Shown here one piece after another: positions 4,853-45,070 of a stretch of DNA of 63,718 bases; position 1 is the first letter of the stretch, and the number at the start of each line of letters is the position of its first letter. Below the pieces are notes generated by a model. That model worked only from the letters and a program-made list of their open reading frames with translations, was not told the DNA's origin and ran no database searches. Both the position numbers and the translations under genes were made by a program. The stretch is from Eubacteriales bacterium (GTDB lineage: Bacteria; Bacillota; Clostridia; Oscillospirales; CAG-272), in the NCBI GenBank assembly GCA_045531485.1, contig JAZSEC010000061.1, positions 1 through 63,718 on the forward strand. The letters run 5' to 3'.

Positions 4853-5090
4853 GTAATAACTGTGACGGAGACAGTAGTGAGGGTAAAAGCGTGCAGAGAA
4901 GCGGCGTTTGGTGCGAGCCGTAAGCGAGTAGCCCCCGACGAAGATCACTCCCGAGTTGCTCGGCCGAACTATAGTAGGCCCTGCCGTCTGCCGCGTTAAG
5001 GCGTAAGAGATGCAGAATTTATTCTGTAATTTCGGGTGGTACCGCGTGTTTTTCGCCCCGATGGTTTTTGACCGTCGGGGCTTTTTATTT
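4853..5090 (+). promoter_or_regulatory. T-box leader (Ile specifier)
   Basis: Conserved T-box sequence GGGTGGTACCGCG at 5034-5046. AGAGA/GTGA stem I elements are present. A candidate specifier ATC (4944-4946) is followed by a purine. The terminator stem GCCCCGATGG/ACCGTCGGGGC plus T-run lies at 5055-5090. The element is directly upstream of ileS. Confidence 0.85.
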
Positions 5091-37429: not shown

Positions 37430-38194
37430 ATGGACAACAATGCTTTAATTGACAGAACCGCTGACAGAGTTATGAGAATGCTTTCCGTGGACACGGATCA
37501 GATCTATAATCATGCAAAAAGAATGATGTGGTCGGTGATAGAATATAAGGAGCTGCAGATGCTTTACACCTGTGCGATGAAGGAGATCACCACCAAGCTT
37601 GAGATACTCGACACCGAGTTTAAGGTAAGGTATAAGAGAAATCCTATAAGCTCCATCACCCATCGCCTTAAAAGGACCGAGAGCATTATGGAAAAAATGG
37701 CCCGCCGCGGCTATCCAATGACTATTGAGAGCATAGAAAGCAACCTTAACGATATAGCCGGTGTCAGAGTGATCTGCACCTACGTTGACGACATTTATGC
37801 AATTGCTGACTCGCTTCTAAATCAGGACGACGTTACGCTGATAGCAAGGAAGGATTATATAAAAGAGCCGAAATCCAACGGCTATCGCAGTCTGCATCTC
37901 ATAGTATCCATACCGGTATTTCTCTCTGAGAGCAGAAAAAGCGTTAAGGTGGAGGTACAGATCCGTACCGTAGCTATGGATTATTGGGCTAGTCTTGAGC
38001 ATCAGATGAAATATAAAAAGGAAATACCAAACGCCGATGACGTTGGCAGGGAGCTTCGCCTGGTTGCCGAAACAATGGCAGAAACCGACAGACGTATGCT
38101 ACAGCTTCGCCGCCGCATTGAGCTTGCCGAGGACGTAAAGAGCGAGGAGGACGAGCTTTTGGATCGCCTTGGCAGATTAGGGCTTCCGCTGTAA
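37430..38194 (+). CDS. Small alarmone synthetase (RelP/RelQ-type GTP pyrophosphokinase)
   Basis: DIAGVRVICTY, KSNGYRSLHLIV and EVQIRTVAMDYWASLEH synthetase motifs. There is no hydrolase domain. Confidence 0.9.
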   Translation: MDNNALIDRTADRVMRMLSVDTDQIYNHAKRMMWSVIEYKELQMLYTCAMKEITTKLEILDTEFKVRYKRNPISSITHRLKRTESIMEKMARRGYPMTIESIESNLNDIAGVRVICTYVDDIYAIADSLLNQDDVTLIARKDYIKEPKSNGYRSLHLIVSIPVFLSESRKSVKVEVQIRTVAMDYWASLEHQMKYKKEIPNADDVGRELRLVAETMAETDRRMLQLRRRIELAEDVKSEEDELLDRLGRLGLPL

Positions 38195-40809: not shown

Positions 40810-41109
40810 TTAAACCTTCTTTCCTTCATCTTCTTTATCGTATGCAGCTTCGGTTGCTAAGTTGCCTTTGCCGCCCGATTTTCTTTCTGCCAGTATCTGT
40901 CTTACCAGCTGAACACTGTTGATAGCAATAAGCACGGTGTTAAGCACGACCACGGGCATGGTATTGACAAAAATAGCGTATATAAGGCTTATCAGACCGC
41001 CCGCCATATTGATACCACGCAGCCACTTTATATCCTTCATAAAGAAGGAGAGAATAACCAGGGCGGTGCCAAAGTAACCGAAAATTTCAAGGGCAATTTT
41101 AGGATCCAT
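40810..41109 (-). CDS. 99-aa three-TM membrane protein (SemiSWEET/PQ-loop/YgjV-sized half-transporter, tentative)
   Basis: Three hydrophobic helices. GGAGG RBS. It is the first gene behind the purine riboswitch. The family was assigned by topology and size only. Confidence 0.45.
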   Translation of the reverse strand: MDPKIALEIFGYFGTALVILSFFMKDIKWLRGINMAGGLISLIYAIFVNTMPVVVLNTVLIAINSVQLVRQILAERKSGGKGNLATEAAYDKEDEGKKV

Positions 41110-41127
41110 AAAAACAAAAAACCTCCA

Positions 41128-41226
41128 AAAACAAAATCAACTACTCATTCGGTAGTCAACCATTTTCGGCGGTTTGTAGAAACGCTTGCCCATATCGCAA
41201 TCATATACCAGAAATCTAATTTAGCG
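41128..41226 (-). promoter_or_regulatory. Purine riboswitch, guanine-type (C at the specificity position), with terminator overlapping the aptamer
   Basis: Minus-strand RNA: GGUA-UAU-GAUUGC-GAUAUGG-GCAAGC-GUUUCUAC-AAACC-GCCGAAAAU-GGUUG-AC-UACC. L2 (GAUAUGG) and J2/3 (GUUUCUAC) are identical to the B. subtilis xpt aptamer as I remember it, and L3 matches at 7 of 9 positions. The terminator GGUUGACUAC-CGAAUGA-GUAGUUGAUU plus UUGUUUUU (41161-41127) reuses the P3 and P1 3' strands. Confidence 0.8.
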
Positions 41227-41232
41227 TAGGCT

Positions 41233-41261
41233 ATTATATCACATTACATACAAAATATCAA
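41233..41261 (-). promoter_or_regulatory. Sigma-A promoter of the riboswitch operon
   Basis: On the minus strand: TTGATA (41261-41256), 17-nt spacer, TATAAT (41238-41233). Confidence 0.65.
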
Positions 41262-41399: not shown

Positions 41400-42149
41400 T
41401 TACTGCCAATCAACAACGCCTACCCAGGACATAAGGAAATCACGCTCGTCGGGATTACCCTTTACCGACTGGGATGCGGCAACGATGGGCATCCATTTCT
41501 GTACGTACTGGCGTGCGGTGTCACTCTTTCTGCAGAAGAGGTCAAGGTAGCTCTCTGCCGCCTCATCGTCACCCGAAAGCCTGAAGGTCAGGTAGGTTCT
41601 CGCAGCATCTGCGGATGCATTTCCCTGGGTCGCATGTGCCCAGTCGATAACGTATGCTCTGTCATCCTCGGTAATAATGATATTCGAGGGACAAAGATCG
41701 CCGTGAAGAAGCTTATTGTGCTTAGGCATTCCCTCAAGGCGGGTGTGAAGCTCGTATCTTACGGTAGCATCAATGCTTGACGAGGAAATCTTTCTGTGCA
41801 TCTTGTCCTTAAGCTTGGTAAGCAGGGGACACTTATGAGCGTGAATAGCGAGCTGAATATCAACCAGCCTCTCGATATACTCATTTTTTCTTTCGGGATG
41901 CTCCTTCATCATCTGGGAAAGAGTCTTGCCCTCGATAAAATCTGTGGTGATCGCCCACTTGCCGTCTATTGTGTTTACTGCCAGAATGCTCGGAATATTG
42001 AGGCCGGTTTCCTCCACTCTTGCCTGGTTAAGTGCCTCGTTCAGCACGTCAGCCTTGGAGAAATCCTCGGCAAAAACCTTTATACATCTGTCGCCGTCGC
42101 GGTAGATCGTCTTATTTTTTCTTTCTGCAATAATATTGTCGAATTTCAT
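41400..42149 (-). CDS. Aminoglycoside/choline-kinase-like phosphotransferase (APH) family protein
   Basis: HGDLCPSNIII (HxDxxxxN catalytic loop) and VIDWAHA (metal-binding D). 249 aa. It starts 3 nt after the adhE stop. Confidence 0.75.
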   Translation of the reverse strand: MKFDNIIAERKNKTIYRDGDRCIKVFAEDFSKADVLNEALNQARVEETGLNIPSILAVNTIDGKWAITTDFIEGKTLSQMMKEHPERKNEYIERLVDIQLAIHAHKCPLLTKLKDKMHRKISSSSIDATVRYELHTRLEGMPKHNKLLHGDLCPSNIIITEDDRAYVIDWAHATQGNASADAARTYLTFRLSGDDEAAESYLDLFCRKSDTARQYVQKWMPIVAASQSVKGNPDERDFLMSWVGVVDWQ

Positions 42150-42152
42150 CTT

Positions 42153-44855
42153 TTATTCCTCTCTCTTGCCCTTTCTGTTGGTTTTCATAGCGGTCTTTGC
42201 GGTGTCAAATCTTACGCTTGTCATATGACTGTCGGGCATATCCTTTTCGGTGAAGTGCTTGCCGTAATATGCGTTAAGATACATCTGCTTGATCTCACTC
42301 ATAAGGGGATAACGGGGGTTTGCACCGGTGCACTGATCGTCGAATGCCTGCTCAACCATCTCGTCGAGGGTTTCGAGGAAGTAGCCTTCATCAACGCCGT
42401 AATCTTTGATGCGGGACTTGATGCCTACTCTTGCCTTAAGCTTGTTTATGGCAGAGATAAGGTTTTCTACCTTGTTTTCGGTCTTTCTGCCGCCGAAACC
42501 GAGGGCATCTGTAATCTCGGCATATCTCTCTGCGGTCTTGGGATGATCATACTGGGAGAAGGTACCCATCTTTGCAGGAGCATCGCAGGAGTTAAAGCGA
42601 ATAACCTCCTCAATCATAAGTGCGTTTGCTACGCCGTGGGGCAGGTGGTGGAAGGCACCAAGCTTATGTGCCATAGAGTGACATACACCGAGGAAGGCGT
42701 TGGCAAATGCCATACCTGCCTGGGTTGCGGCGTTCGCCATTTTTTCTCTTGCGATAACGTCGGTATCGCCATGCTCGTATGCTCTGGGCAGATACTCGAA
42801 TATGGTCTTAAGAGCACCGAGGCACAGACTGTCGGTGTAGTCGGTCGCCATCATGGAGGCGTAAGCCTCAAGTGCGTGGGTAACTGCGTCAATACCCGAC
42901 GCTGCGGTAAGGCCGCGGGGTGCAGACATGTGAAGGTCGGTGTCGATTATTGCCATATCGGGCATAAGCTCGTAGTCGGCAAGGGGATACTTGACGCCGG
43001 TCTGCTCGTCGGTAATAACTGCGAAGGGAGTAACCTCACTACCCGTACCTGCAGAGGTGGGGATGGCGATAAAGTATGCCTTCTCACCCATCTTGGGGAA
43101 GGTGTAGACCCTCTTTCTGATGTCAATAAATCTCATCGCCATATCCATAAAGTCTGCCTCGGGATGCTCGTAGAGAACCCACATAATCTTTGCCGCGTCC
43201 ATAGCCGAGCCGCCGCCGAGGGCGATAATGGTATCGGGGGCAAAGGCGGTCATCTGCTTTGCACCCTCCTTTGCATTTGCAAGGGTGGGATCGGGCTGAA
43301 CGCCCCAGAAGGATGCGTGTGCGATGCCGAGGCTGTCAAGCTTGTCGGTGATTGGCTTTGTATAACCGTTGTTGTAAAGGAATTCGTCGGTGACGATAAA
43401 TACTCTCTTAGAGCCTCTGACCGTCTTAAGCTCGTCGAGAGCAACGGGCAGACAGCCCTTTTTGATATAAATTTTCTCGGGAGCTCTGAACCAAAGCATA
43501 TTTTCTCTCCTCTCTGCCACGGTCTTGATGTTGATAAGGTGCTTTACGCCTACGTTTTCGGATACGCTGTTGCCGCCCCAGGAGCCACAGCCAAGGGTCA
43601 GCGAGGGAGCAAGACGGAAGTTGTAAAGGTCACCGATACCGCCCTGTGCCGCAGGTGTGTTTACAAGTATACGGCAGGTCTTCATTCGTGCCGCGAAGGC
43701 GTTAAGCTTTTCCTTCTCGGTCGCATCGTTGATATATATAGAGGAGGTGTGACCGTAGCCACCGTCGGCAACCAGTCGGTCAGCCTTGTCAAGTGCGTCG
43801 GCAAAGTCCTTCGCCCTATACATAGCCAGTACGGGAGAGAGCTTCTCGTGGGCAAATTCCTCAGAGATGTCAACGCTCTCCACCTCACCTATAAGGATCT
43901 TAGTTCCCTCGGGAACCTCGACGCCTGCAAGGGTGGCAATATTATATGCACTCTGTCCTACGATCCTTGCGTTAAGCGAGCCGTTTATGATGATGGTTTT
44001 TCTAACCTTGTCAAGCTCCTCGCCGTGAAGGAAGTAGCAGCCTCTGTTAGCAAACTCCTCCTTGACCGCCTCATACACCTCGTCAAGCACGATAACCGAC
44101 TGCTCGGAGGCACAGATCATTCCGTTGTCGAAGGTCTTACTGTGAATTACCGAGCTTACGGCAAGGAAAATATCAGCCGAGCCGTCGATGATTGCAGGTG
44201 TATTTCCCGCACCTACGCCAATGGCGGGCTTGCCGGAGGAGTATGCACTCTTTACCATTCCGGGACCTCCGGTGGCAAGGATAATGTCCGCCTCCTTCAT
44301 AACGGTGTTCGTCATTTCAAGAGAGGGGGCGTCGATCCAACCGATAATTCCCTCGGGAGCTCCTGCCTTAACGGCTGCCTCAAGCACCACCTTCGCTGCC
44401 GCGATGGTAGAGTTCTTTGCTCTGGGGTGGGGGCTGATGATAATACCGTTTCTGGTCTTAAGTGCCAGAAGGGTCTTGAATATTGCGGTAGAGGTGGGGT
44501 TTGTCGTAGGAATTACCGCCGCGATAACGCCGATAGGCTCGGCAATTTTCTTAATTCCGTAGGCCTTGTCCTCTTCGATAACACCGCAGGTCTTGGTGTC
44601 CTTATATGCGTTGTAGATATACTCTGCGGCATAGTGGTTTTTAATAACCTTATCTTCTACGATGCCCATGCCTGTTTCTGCAACCGCAAGCTTTGCAAGC
44701 GATATTCTCGCCTTGTCAGCCGCACTCGCCGCAGCGAGAAAGATTTTGTCTACCTCTTCCTGGGTGTAGGTGGCGAATTTTCTTTGTGCCCCTCTGATGC
44801 TACCGATAGCAGCCTCAAGGCTTTCGATACTGTCTACTGTCCTGTAATTTTCCAT
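42153..44855 (-). CDS. adhE: Bifunctional acetaldehyde-CoA/alcohol dehydrogenase
   Basis: 900 aa with an N-terminal ALDH domain and a C-terminal iron-ADH domain (GGGSAMDAAK, HxxxH). Start moved to MENYRTVDS (44855), which has a GGAGA RBS. Confidence 0.97.
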   Translation of the reverse strand: MENYRTVDSIESLEAAIGSIRGAQRKFATYTQEEVDKIFLAAASAADKARISLAKLAVAETGMGIVEDKVIKNHYAAEYIYNAYKDTKTCGVIEEDKAYGIKKIAEPIGVIAAVIPTTNPTSTAIFKTLLALKTRNGIIISPHPRAKNSTIAAAKVVLEAAVKAGAPEGIIGWIDAPSLEMTNTVMKEADIILATGGPGMVKSAYSSGKPAIGVGAGNTPAIIDGSADIFLAVSSVIHSKTFDNGMICASEQSVIVLDEVYEAVKEEFANRGCYFLHGEELDKVRKTIIINGSLNARIVGQSAYNIATLAGVEVPEGTKILIGEVESVDISEEFAHEKLSPVLAMYRAKDFADALDKADRLVADGGYGHTSSIYINDATEKEKLNAFAARMKTCRILVNTPAAQGGIGDLYNFRLAPSLTLGCGSWGGNSVSENVGVKHLINIKTVAERRENMLWFRAPEKIYIKKGCLPVALDELKTVRGSKRVFIVTDEFLYNNGYTKPITDKLDSLGIAHASFWGVQPDPTLANAKEGAKQMTAFAPDTIIALGGGSAMDAAKIMWVLYEHPEADFMDMAMRFIDIRKRVYTFPKMGEKAYFIAIPTSAGTGSEVTPFAVITDEQTGVKYPLADYELMPDMAIIDTDLHMSAPRGLTAASGIDAVTHALEAYASMMATDYTDSLCLGALKTIFEYLPRAYEHGDTDVIAREKMANAATQAGMAFANAFLGVCHSMAHKLGAFHHLPHGVANALMIEEVIRFNSCDAPAKMGTFSQYDHPKTAERYAEITDALGFGGRKTENKVENLISAINKLKARVGIKSRIKDYGVDEGYFLETLDEMVEQAFDDQCTGANPRYPLMSEIKQMYLNAYYGKHFTEKDMPDSHMTSVRFDTAKTAMKTNRKGKREE

Positions 44856-45070
44856 AATATTTTCTCCTGAATGGTTAATGTAATCTAATATAATGGTAGA
44901 AAAAACGGCATAACGTATGCACATTTATTCTTTTTTTTGCGAAAAAGGGAAGAATAAAACCTGGGATAAAGCAATAATAAGCTCACCGCCCGGGGATAAC
45001 GAAGCAACTGCCTTCAGCCTTCCCGCCGCCCTATTTCTTGCTTGTCTTGGTAACTACCCAAGAAATGTTA

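Follow-up and report, generated by a model that had tools for sequence, protein, structure and literature searches.

Guanine-I riboswitches are the textbook OFF switch and a drug-target model; can an aptamer of this type also turn genes on? This question is raised by a leader on the minus strand of a 63,718-nucleotide (nt) stretch of DNA from an Eubacteriales bacterium (assembly GCA_045531485.1, contig JAZSEC010000061.1), which was analysed as a whole and is referred to here as the window. The leader precedes an operon of two genes, the first of which (41109-40810, minus strand) encodes a 99-amino-acid (aa) protein with three predicted transmembrane helices, while the second (40806-39106, minus strand) starts 3 nt after the first and encodes a 566-aa protein. 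We consider it probable, at roughly 0.78, that the leader is a guanine-I-type purine riboswitch acting as the genetic ON switch of this operon, and the same predicted ON design recurs in many gut Clostridia.

An intact guanine-type aptamer

The whole window was searched with cmscan against the 4227 families of Rfam 15 at the gathering threshold, and two matches only were returned: the Purine family (RF00167) in the leader of the operon and a T-box (RF00230) elsewhere. A preliminary description of this DNA had proposed a guanine-type purine aptamer at this position and had named the RF00167 score as a check. The match, at 41230..41133 on the minus strand, reaches 51.7 bits (gathering score 37; E = 7e-06), and the leader is thus a bona fide member of the family, with the pocket nucleotides U22, U47, U51 and C74 expected of the guanine type.

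With positions numbered as in xpt (the mapping is our own), the aptamer core extends from the 5' to the 3' strand of P1 at 41209-41151, within the flanks covered by the Rfam match. P1 pairs GGUA (41209-41206) with UACC (41154-41151), giving 4 base pairs (bp) plus one U.G, and J1/2 reads UAU (U22-A23-U24). P2 (41202-41184) has 6 bp, with G25-C45 as its first pair and an A.G at 26.44, and is closed by L2, GAUAUGG (41196-41190). The 8-nt J2/3, GUUUCUAC (41183-41176), carries the ligand-contacting U47 and U51. P3 (41175-41157) is formed by AAACCG and UGGUUG, has an A.G mismatch as its basal pair 54.72, and bears L3, CCGAAAA (41169-41163). J3/1 consists of A73-C74 (41156-41155), all of these elements being on the minus strand, and C74 at 41155 is the Watson-Crick specificity nucleotide of the guanine/hypoxanthine type.

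The pocket was compared among 57 distinct aptamer sequences from relatives (alignment A3). All four ligand-contacting positions are of guanine type and invariant across the 57 leaders, including the C at the ligand-pairing position that the earlier reading had noticed. The remaining pocket and triple-forming nucleotides are also present in the window (U20, A21, U22, A23, G46-C53, A73, C74, U75 and A76), and every nucleotide required for both P1 base triples of guanine-I structures is in place. Within J2/3, position 48 alone varies, G46, U47, U49, C50, U51, A52 and C53 being invariant, and the J1/2 UAU and the J3/1 AC are likewise unchanged throughout. All pocket positions are conserved, although protein identity between the species has fallen to 40-76%.

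The alignment also speaks for the fold. Paired cells amount to 85% in the aptamer alignment, compared with 23-45% for slid controls. Changes on both sides of a pair occur at all six pairs of P2 and at three pairs of P3, and the compensatory changes in P2 indicate purifying selection on the aptamer fold. The 4-bp core of P1 is invariant in 57/57, and the putative extensions of this helix are paired in just 45% of cells, which rules out a longer P1 and argues that the helix is truly 4 bp. The L2-L3 pairs G37-C61 and G38-C60, together with the conserved A and U of the loops, are invariant in all 57 sequences and hence uninformative for covariation.

Competition between the aptamer and a nested hairpin

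The sole stable structure downstream of the aptamer in the leader is a hairpin that reuses its nucleotides. In the inner, terminator-like part (41161-41135), GGUUGACUAC (41161-41152) pairs with GUAGUUGAUU (41144-41135), directly followed by the U-tract UUGUUUUU (41134-41127). Aptamer positions 68-77, namely the 3' strand of P3, J3/1 and the 3' strand of P1, supply the 5' arm of this hairpin, exactly as had been described before. The inner hairpin has a predicted energy of -15 kcal/mol (z = -3.9), and none of 200 shuffled sequences was as good.

The previous account took this platform for a terminator only. The terminator-like hairpin stands, but its outward continuation, which also sequesters the Shine-Dalgarno sequence, had been overlooked. 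In the 57-nt outer hairpin (41175-41119; -21.2 kcal/mol, z = -4.3, 0/200 shuffles), the 3' side, UUUUUGG-A-GGUUU, takes up first L3 (CCGAAAA with UUUUUGG) and then the 5' strand of P3 (AAACC with GGUUU), so that the whole Shine-Dalgarno sequence, GGAGG (41126-41122, 12 nt upstream of the ATG), lies within the stem. The first U-tract was said to end 5 nt before the ribosome-binding site, which is incorrect: it abuts GGAGG directly. A second U-run, UUUGUUUUU (41118-41110), follows the outer hairpin and abuts the ATG at 41109; both nested hairpins are thus followed by U-runs with at least 8 U in 9 positions.

The aptamer and the hairpin are mutually exclusive, as had been proposed, since they share nucleotides and the minimum-free-energy fold of the full leader (-27.4 kcal/mol) has the hairpin instead of the aptamer. 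Folds retaining P1, P2 and P3 reach -16.2 kcal/mol at best, about 11 kcal/mol less stable than the OFF fold, and the end of P1 is only 7 nt away from the invading strand. From this mutual exclusivity of aptamer and terminator or sequestor it follows that ligand should switch the operon ON. As the OFF fold is the more stable one by about 11 kcal/mol at the level of secondary structure, the decision is expected to be kinetic and co-transcriptional, as in pbuE.

The following sequence of events may be envisaged. Transcription would start about 7 nt past the TATAAT box of the promoter. Guanine or hypoxanthine captured during synthesis of the aptamer would hold the 4-bp P1, P3 and the L2-L3 kissing contact in the three-way junction, leaving the downstream strand without a partner, so that RNA polymerase could read through and GGAGG would remain free. 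When no ligand is bound, the P3 5' strand, L3, the P3 3' strand, J3/1 including C74, and the P1 3' strand would refold with their downstream complement. The resulting long hairpin would present two nested hairpin-plus-U-run terminator configurations with the Shine-Dalgarno sequence buried, and expression would therefore be blocked at both transcription and translation. Termination and translational masking, like the physiological role considered below, are what we infer from the sequence of the leader and its genes.

Conservation of the leader design

A genome scan with the 99-aa protein yielded 13 close loci, in metagenome-assembled genomes (MAGs) of uncultured gut Oscillospiraceae and 'Eubacteriales'. 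RF00167 lies directly upstream in 13/13 (47.8-53.4 bits), and a nested hairpin enclosing the Shine-Dalgarno sequence is found in all of them except L013 (the same MAG contig as L026 of the second scan), which has a clean, strong terminator with no Shine-Dalgarno pairing. The outer helix is kept in 11/11 subclade sequences, with A-U, G-U and G-C alternating opposite L3, and the GGAGGUUUUUU spacer is conserved in the close relatives.

A wider, profile-based scan with the same protein covered 80 loci in species-level genomes, 64 of which have the aptamer. Aptamers were located by a regular-expression pattern (L069 was mis-delimited and excluded; L123 was missed and recovered by Rfam), and the Rfam gathering score was reached by 15 of 20 diverse relatives. 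Pairing of positions 68-78 with an arm further downstream was seen in 64 distinct leaders, and the terminator-stem positions 71-73 show true compensatory changes: position 71 is U-A in 35 leaders, U.G in 6 and C-G in 5; position 72 is G-C in 49, G.U in 6 and A-U in 4; and position 73 is A-U in 45, U-A in 10 and U.G in 2. The specificity nucleotide at position 74 is engaged as C-G in the OFF fold of 58/64 leaders. Most of the 64 have a hairpin followed by at least 6 U within the next 9 nt, and a hairpin invading P3 and P1 was seen in nearly every leader examined. Four leaders (L035, L039, L041 and L044) have no terminator; there, GGAGGG is the direct partner of the P1 3' strand (ACCUUUU), an arrangement that again predicts ON control, now through translation.

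A scan centred on the 566-aa protein, a predicted kinase (see below), matched at least 571 species-level genomes, of which the best 80 loci were analysed. The aptamer, the small gene and the kinase occur together in 28 of these loci, and the aptamer stands directly before the kinase in another 27; in 9 the small gene is present and the aptamer position lies beyond the fetched flank, and in 16 no aptamer was found by pattern, one of them (L123) being rescued by Rfam. At least 55/80 kinase genomes thus have the aptamer, and the 27 leaders directly upstream of the kinase contain a P3/P1-invading hairpin of the same type. These counts point to the kinase as the core of the regulon. Among kinase loci lacking the aptamer, the Rfam scan detected no other riboswitch class; it returned the Purine match of L123 and two downstream Gut-1 RNAs (RF01706), which lie just downstream of the kinase gene (L119, 2463-2533; L160, 2687-2762; 56 and 72 bits, respectively).

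The design is therefore conserved and covarying over many genomes, and the ON wiring proposed in the preliminary description is supported at the sequence level by the invading hairpin in 64 leaders, with its compensatory changes, and in the 27 kinase-proximal leaders. The predicted ON logic is kept by devices that differ in make-up: some have a terminator alone, some mask the Shine-Dalgarno sequence alone, and some do both. One family would thus couple one aptamer to three kinds of ON platform.

Several leaders depart from the common form. In L160, L164 and L165, GGUAUUGCAUAUUUGAAUGACUACC stands ahead of a terminator of the usual kind, about 60-110 nt upstream of the kinase start; P2 and P3 are lost, with P1, J3/1 and the terminator retained, so that these leaders look like riboswitch relics leaving a ligand-blind attenuator. 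An aptamer sub-family ahead of the small gene (L033, L038, L055, L061, L071 and L085) has UC in J3/1 (A73U) and GUCUCUAC in J2/3 (U48C), with L2 and L3 each 1 nt shorter; L033 scores 36.9 bits, just below the gathering score, and the sub-family is a candidate for altered affinity or specificity. The aptamers of L048 and L056 have an 18-nt hairpin insertion in L3/P3 (CCGCAAUAUCCGC..GCGGAUCAAUGG) and AUCAGGG as L2; L048 is below the Rfam gathering score, and both retain an ON-type terminator.

Gene products and possible role of the operon

The 99-aa protein matches the C-terminal half of the Pfam family Imp-YgjV (PF10688) at 22 bits, below the cut-off of 23.5, and its longer homologues score 24-27 bits to the same family. 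The AlphaFold model contains three helices, with a predicted local distance difference test (pLDDT) score of about 70-85 in the membrane part. SemiSWEETs rank first in a Foldseek search, at a non-significant level (E > 2, TM 0.44-0.55), and the likeness is suggestive only; the product is a candidate for a small subunit of a transporter. In many homologues the three-helix domain forms the N-terminus of a 180-215-aa protein (L029, L035, L039, L044, L046, L047, L086, L090 and L091), whose C-terminal half gives weak matches to GNAT acetyltransferases (best E = 0.002, L047); the version in the window consists of the membrane domain alone plus a charged tail.

The 566-aa protein is 66-92% identical across relatives. 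Its N-terminus has no Pfam or NCBIfam match, and the resemblance of residues 69-215 to the N-terminal region of threonyl-tRNA synthetase (ThrRS) comes from a PDB sequence search only. Residues 302-517 form a P-loop kinase domain of the PRK/uridine-kinase family (PF00485, 53.5 bits). The scores to the NCBIfam udk equivalogs are 83-88 bits, compared with cut-offs of 180-220, and alignment to Thermus thermophilus Udk shows the base-reading motif PVYDFRAHTR replaced by PSFNFKRGRR, with Phe at the Tyr and Gly at the His/Tyr. The assignment as a Udk/UCK uridine-cytidine kinase was rejected on these two grounds, and the protein is best described as a predicted relative of the Udk family, not a demonstrable uridine kinase.

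ON riboswitches mostly control the disposal, export or use of their ligand. The operon is likely to serve the purine-base-induced uptake and phosphorylation of a nucleoside, and two versions of this role may be considered. In the first, the operon could import and phosphorylate a pyrimidine nucleoside, so that the supply of pyrimidine nucleotides would track that of purines. This version draws on the Udk-family fold and on the genes found beside riboswitch-less homologues of the membrane protein: in L091 and L092 such homologues lie directly after upp (uracil phosphoribosyltransferase, C-terminus GLGDAGDRIFGT), and in L047 one lies directly before a dCTP-deaminase-like gene (dcd), so that all three loci have a pyrimidine-metabolism neighbourhood. 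If true, it would constitute a purine-to-pyrimidine balancing circuit at the RNA level. In the second version, the enzyme could be a purine nucleoside kinase whose base pocket is widened by Gly in place of His/Tyr, with free guanine signalling the availability of nucleosides.

A broader reading, which we hold only tentatively and regard as less likely than not, takes the leader as the founding case of a widespread gut-Clostridia regulon, in which a guanine-I-type aptamer with a non-Watson-Crick 54.72 and a 4-bp P1 would activate an uncharacterised salvage module. This module would combine a SemiSWEET-like three-helix transporter with a ThrRS-editing-like and Udk-like kinase whose base-reading residues are altered, and would provide either a purine-to-pyrimidine feed-forward or a new purine-nucleoside kinase under a switch with guanine-II-like sharpened selectivity. 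The riboswitch would hint at what these proteins do, both the kinase, whose uncharacterised family is abundant (at least 571 species-level genomes), and the small YgjV-like membrane protein in gut Oscillospiraceae.

Alternative explanations

Several observations weigh against the reading of the leader as a guanine-responsive ON switch of a salvage operon. P1 is merely 4 bp, and neither P1 nor the kissing pairs vary in the close subclade, so that they carry no covariation information. The basal pair of P3, 54.72, is A.G here and non-standard in 47/57 relatives; it departs from the C-G of the Rfam consensus beside the pocket and might adjust or alter specificity. The inner hairpin is rich in A/U and G.U, with only 2 G-C pairs in its core, and could be a poor terminator by itself. 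On the side of the genes, the transporter assignment is based on a sub-threshold Pfam match and non-significant Foldseek matches, and the kinase has F and G where uridine-cytidine kinases have the base-reading Tyr and His/Tyr.

The alternative that survives best, although it is unlikely, is an essentially translational ON switch, in which the hairpin sequesters the Shine-Dalgarno sequence as in Vibrio vulnificus add and the U-runs are incidental, with little or no termination. Such a device would agree with the complete enclosure of the Shine-Dalgarno sequence by the outer helix, with an inner stem poor in G-C pairs, with the close relatives L020 and L021, which keep the outer helix and have an inner stem of only 5 bp and a short U-run, and with the four leaders (L035, L039, L041 and L044) that have Shine-Dalgarno masking alone. 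However, the wider family mostly has strong, G-C-rich hairpins with 6-8 U away from the Shine-Dalgarno sequence (L028-L032, L042 and L026), each of the two nested hairpins of the window is followed by its own U-run, and the GGAGGUUUUUU spacer is conserved. Termination is also the usual mode in Firmicutes, and termination and masking are compatible rather than exclusive modes.

Somewhat less probable still is the same ON architecture with a ligand other than guanine or hypoxanthine, whether through guanine-II-like selectivity or through recognition of xanthine, a nucleoside, or the substrate or product of the kinase. As judged from the pocket nucleotides, the best-supported ligand is guanine, with hypoxanthine and possibly xanthine as weaker ligands: U22, U47, U51 and C74 and both base triples are canonical. 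The adenine class needs U74 and is rejected, as C is found at 41155 and in all aligned relatives. The 8-oxoguanine (8-oxoG) class is rejected because its diagnostic deletion of U47 is absent, J2/3 being the full 8-nt GUUUCUAC, and because the downstream genes encode a membrane protein and a kinase. Xanthine-II, diagnosed by U51G plus insertions, does not fit a leader that retains U51 (neither G nor C) without insertions, and 2'-deoxyguanosine (2'-dG) binding was rejected on the absence of U51C, the sole 2'-dG change checked. Guanine-II is diagnosed by one insertion in J2/3 and four in J3/1, and for guanine-II and xanthine-II taken together the insertions number one or two in J2/3 and four in J3/1; here neither junction has insertions, and J3/1 is 2 nt (AC), A54 being the sole nucleotide that recalls the extra one in the J2/3 of guanine-II.

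What remains in favour of an altered ligand are features that may have retuned the pocket, namely the non-Watson-Crick 54.72, the 6-bp P2, U24 and the 4-bp P1. The preliminary description had taken U24, the differences in L3 and the weak P1 as a hint in this direction, a hint that proves weak. The consensus at position 24 is W. Of the natural guanine aptamers tested by Mulhbacher and Lafontaine, the two that bind most tightly, B. subtilis yxjA and S. pyogenes xpt, combine U24 with G-C or G-U as the first P2 pair (PMC2018637); U24 with the G-C pair of the window is thus a documented high-affinity guanine variant and is ruled out as a sign of a new ligand. The P1 of natural aptamers ranges from two to nine pairs (PMC2018637). 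The sub-family with UC in J3/1, U48C and shortened loops (36.9 bits) also counts in favour of an altered ligand.

The 54.72 position deserves closer attention, since G72 is conserved although the pair is non-standard in 47/57 leaders, facing a variable, mostly A, position 54. J2/3 together with A54 reads GUUUCUACA, the same string as in the J2/3 of guanine-II, where C40 re-pairs with a G of J3/1 and xanthine binding is lost (PMC12445698). Relatives with A72 are unable to form C53-G72, which argues against a strict pair of this kind, and a guanine-II-like retuning of the pocket is unlikely here. The association with a kinase and a small membrane protein is also atypical for guanine-I, and atypical associations have repeatedly marked a changed specificity (PMC9295807, PMC10556655).

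Least probable by far is a decayed, non-switching leader, an aptamer-like relic before a constitutive attenuator with no response to ligand: such decay is seen in the family (L160, L164 and L165 keep GGUA...GACUACC and the terminator), and the OFF fold is the more stable one, but the aptamer of the window is intact, exceeding the gathering score by 14.7 bits, its pocket has outlasted the protein divergence given above, and the changes in P2 speak for selection on the fold.

Comparison with known purine riboswitches

One of the closest parallels to the guanine-type ON switch proposed here is the B. subtilis pbuE (ydhL) adenine riboswitch. It has the same RF00167 three-way-junction aptamer and the same ON design, in which the 3' strands of P3 and P1, together with J3/1, double as the 5' arm of the terminator, and its weak P1 likewise suggests that control should be kinetic. 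In contrast, pbuE has U74 where the window has C74, so that the ligand here should be guanine or hypoxanthine and not adenine; it controls a purine efflux pump of the major facilitator superfamily instead of a three-helix membrane protein and a Udk-family kinase; and its helix does not have the extension over the Shine-Dalgarno sequence that is found here. The translational ON switch of Vibrio vulnificus add is alike in that a ligand-stabilised P1 frees a Shine-Dalgarno sequence otherwise paired to aptamer-derived sequence, and it is nearest to L035, L039, L041 and L044 and to the outer helix of the window. It differs in sensing adenine (U74) and in having no terminator, whereas the window combines masking with terminator-like hairpins.

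Among the guanine-I riboswitches, B. subtilis xpt-pbuX and yxjA/nupG and S. pyogenes xpt share with the window the pocket U22, U47, U51 and C74, the J2/3 GUUUCUAC, the L2 GAUAUGG and membership in the same Rfam model; yxjA and S. pyogenes xpt also share U24 with a G-C first P2 pair (PMC2018637). The differences are the 4-bp P1, the 6-bp P2 and the A.G pair 54-72 at the base of P3, and above all the logic: in those systems ligand favours the terminator and switches OFF genes for purine salvage, uptake or synthesis, and this logic is inverted here. Guanine-II riboswitches, found before phosphoribosyltransferase genes of Paenibacillus (PMC9295807, PMC12445698), are similar in their U, U, C pocket, their predicted ON regulation and, if A54 is counted, GUUUCUACA. 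They differ in gene association and taxa and in four extra J3/1 nucleotides (C59-G62) that, with an inserted A in J2/3, build extra stacked pairs, whereas J3/1 here is A-C after G72. The 8-oxoguanine riboswitch (PMC10556655) is also built on a guanine-I-derived scaffold with C74, was shown experimentally to be ON, and has a terminator overlapping P1 and P3; however, U47 is deleted there and present here, and it always lies upstream of 8-oxoG deaminase genes, in Paenibacillaceae only.

These comparisons delimit what is new. The preliminary description had set the leader against guanine riboswitches known as OFF switches. This contrast holds for guanine-I, whose members are described by the authors of PMC10556655 and PMC9295807 as lowering expression when guanine is plentiful. 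As a claim of universal novelty it does not hold, because the literature already has C74-bearing ON switches on this scaffold: 8-oxoG riboswitches are ON by experiment, and xanthine-II and guanine-II by prediction (PMC10556655, PMC9295807). The novelty is therefore narrower than 'guanine always OFF'. The principle of an ON purine riboswitch is itself established. No literature description was found of a guanine-I ON switch, or of a purine riboswitch tied to uridine kinase, udk or YgjV, although coverage was incomplete, which makes this an absence of evidence and nothing more. A guanine-I pocket joined to predicted ON regulation and to these genes is thus apparently unreported. A natural clade with a guanine-I pocket and inverted logic would provide a guanine-responsive ON part for synthetic biology, and would let one study how the kinetic window for the decision is set by a P1 of 4 bp and the helix competing with it.

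Promoter and neighbouring features

The minus-strand TTGATA-17-TATAAT promoter noticed earlier was recovered by a promoter scan, with 11/12 consensus matches. This sigma-70-type promoter (41261-41233) lies ahead of the riboswitch leader, with the -35 TTGATA at 41261-41256, a 17-nt spacer including a TG extension, and the -10 TATAAT at 41238-41233. Promoters resembling TTGAC(A/T)-17-TGnTATAAT are found at an equal distance in many related loci. The preceding gene (42149-41400, minus strand) encodes an APH-like kinase and has its own intrinsic terminator at 41337-41308 (minus strand; an 11-bp stem with 5 G-C pairs and a U-tail). As this terminator lies upstream of the promoter, the riboswitch leader forms a separate transcription unit, and the possibility that the leader hairpin terminates the upstream gene is ruled out.

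About 1 kb past the 3' end of the riboswitch operon, outside it and on the opposite strand, a gene at 37430-38194 (plus strand) encodes a 254-aa RelA_SpoT-domain protein of the small alarmone synthetase type (PF04607, E = 6e-34), which makes it a guanine-nucleotide-metabolism neighbour of the operon. The T-box leader RF00230 lies at 4853-5063 on the plus strand of the window and scores 105.5 bits against a gathering score of 93. Further upstream of the operon, a 1024-aa open reading frame on the plus strand (41796-44870) appears spurious, being antisense to a 923-aa gene (42153-44924, minus strand) whose product resembles, by eye, a bifunctional aldehyde/alcohol dehydrogenase (AdhE-like).

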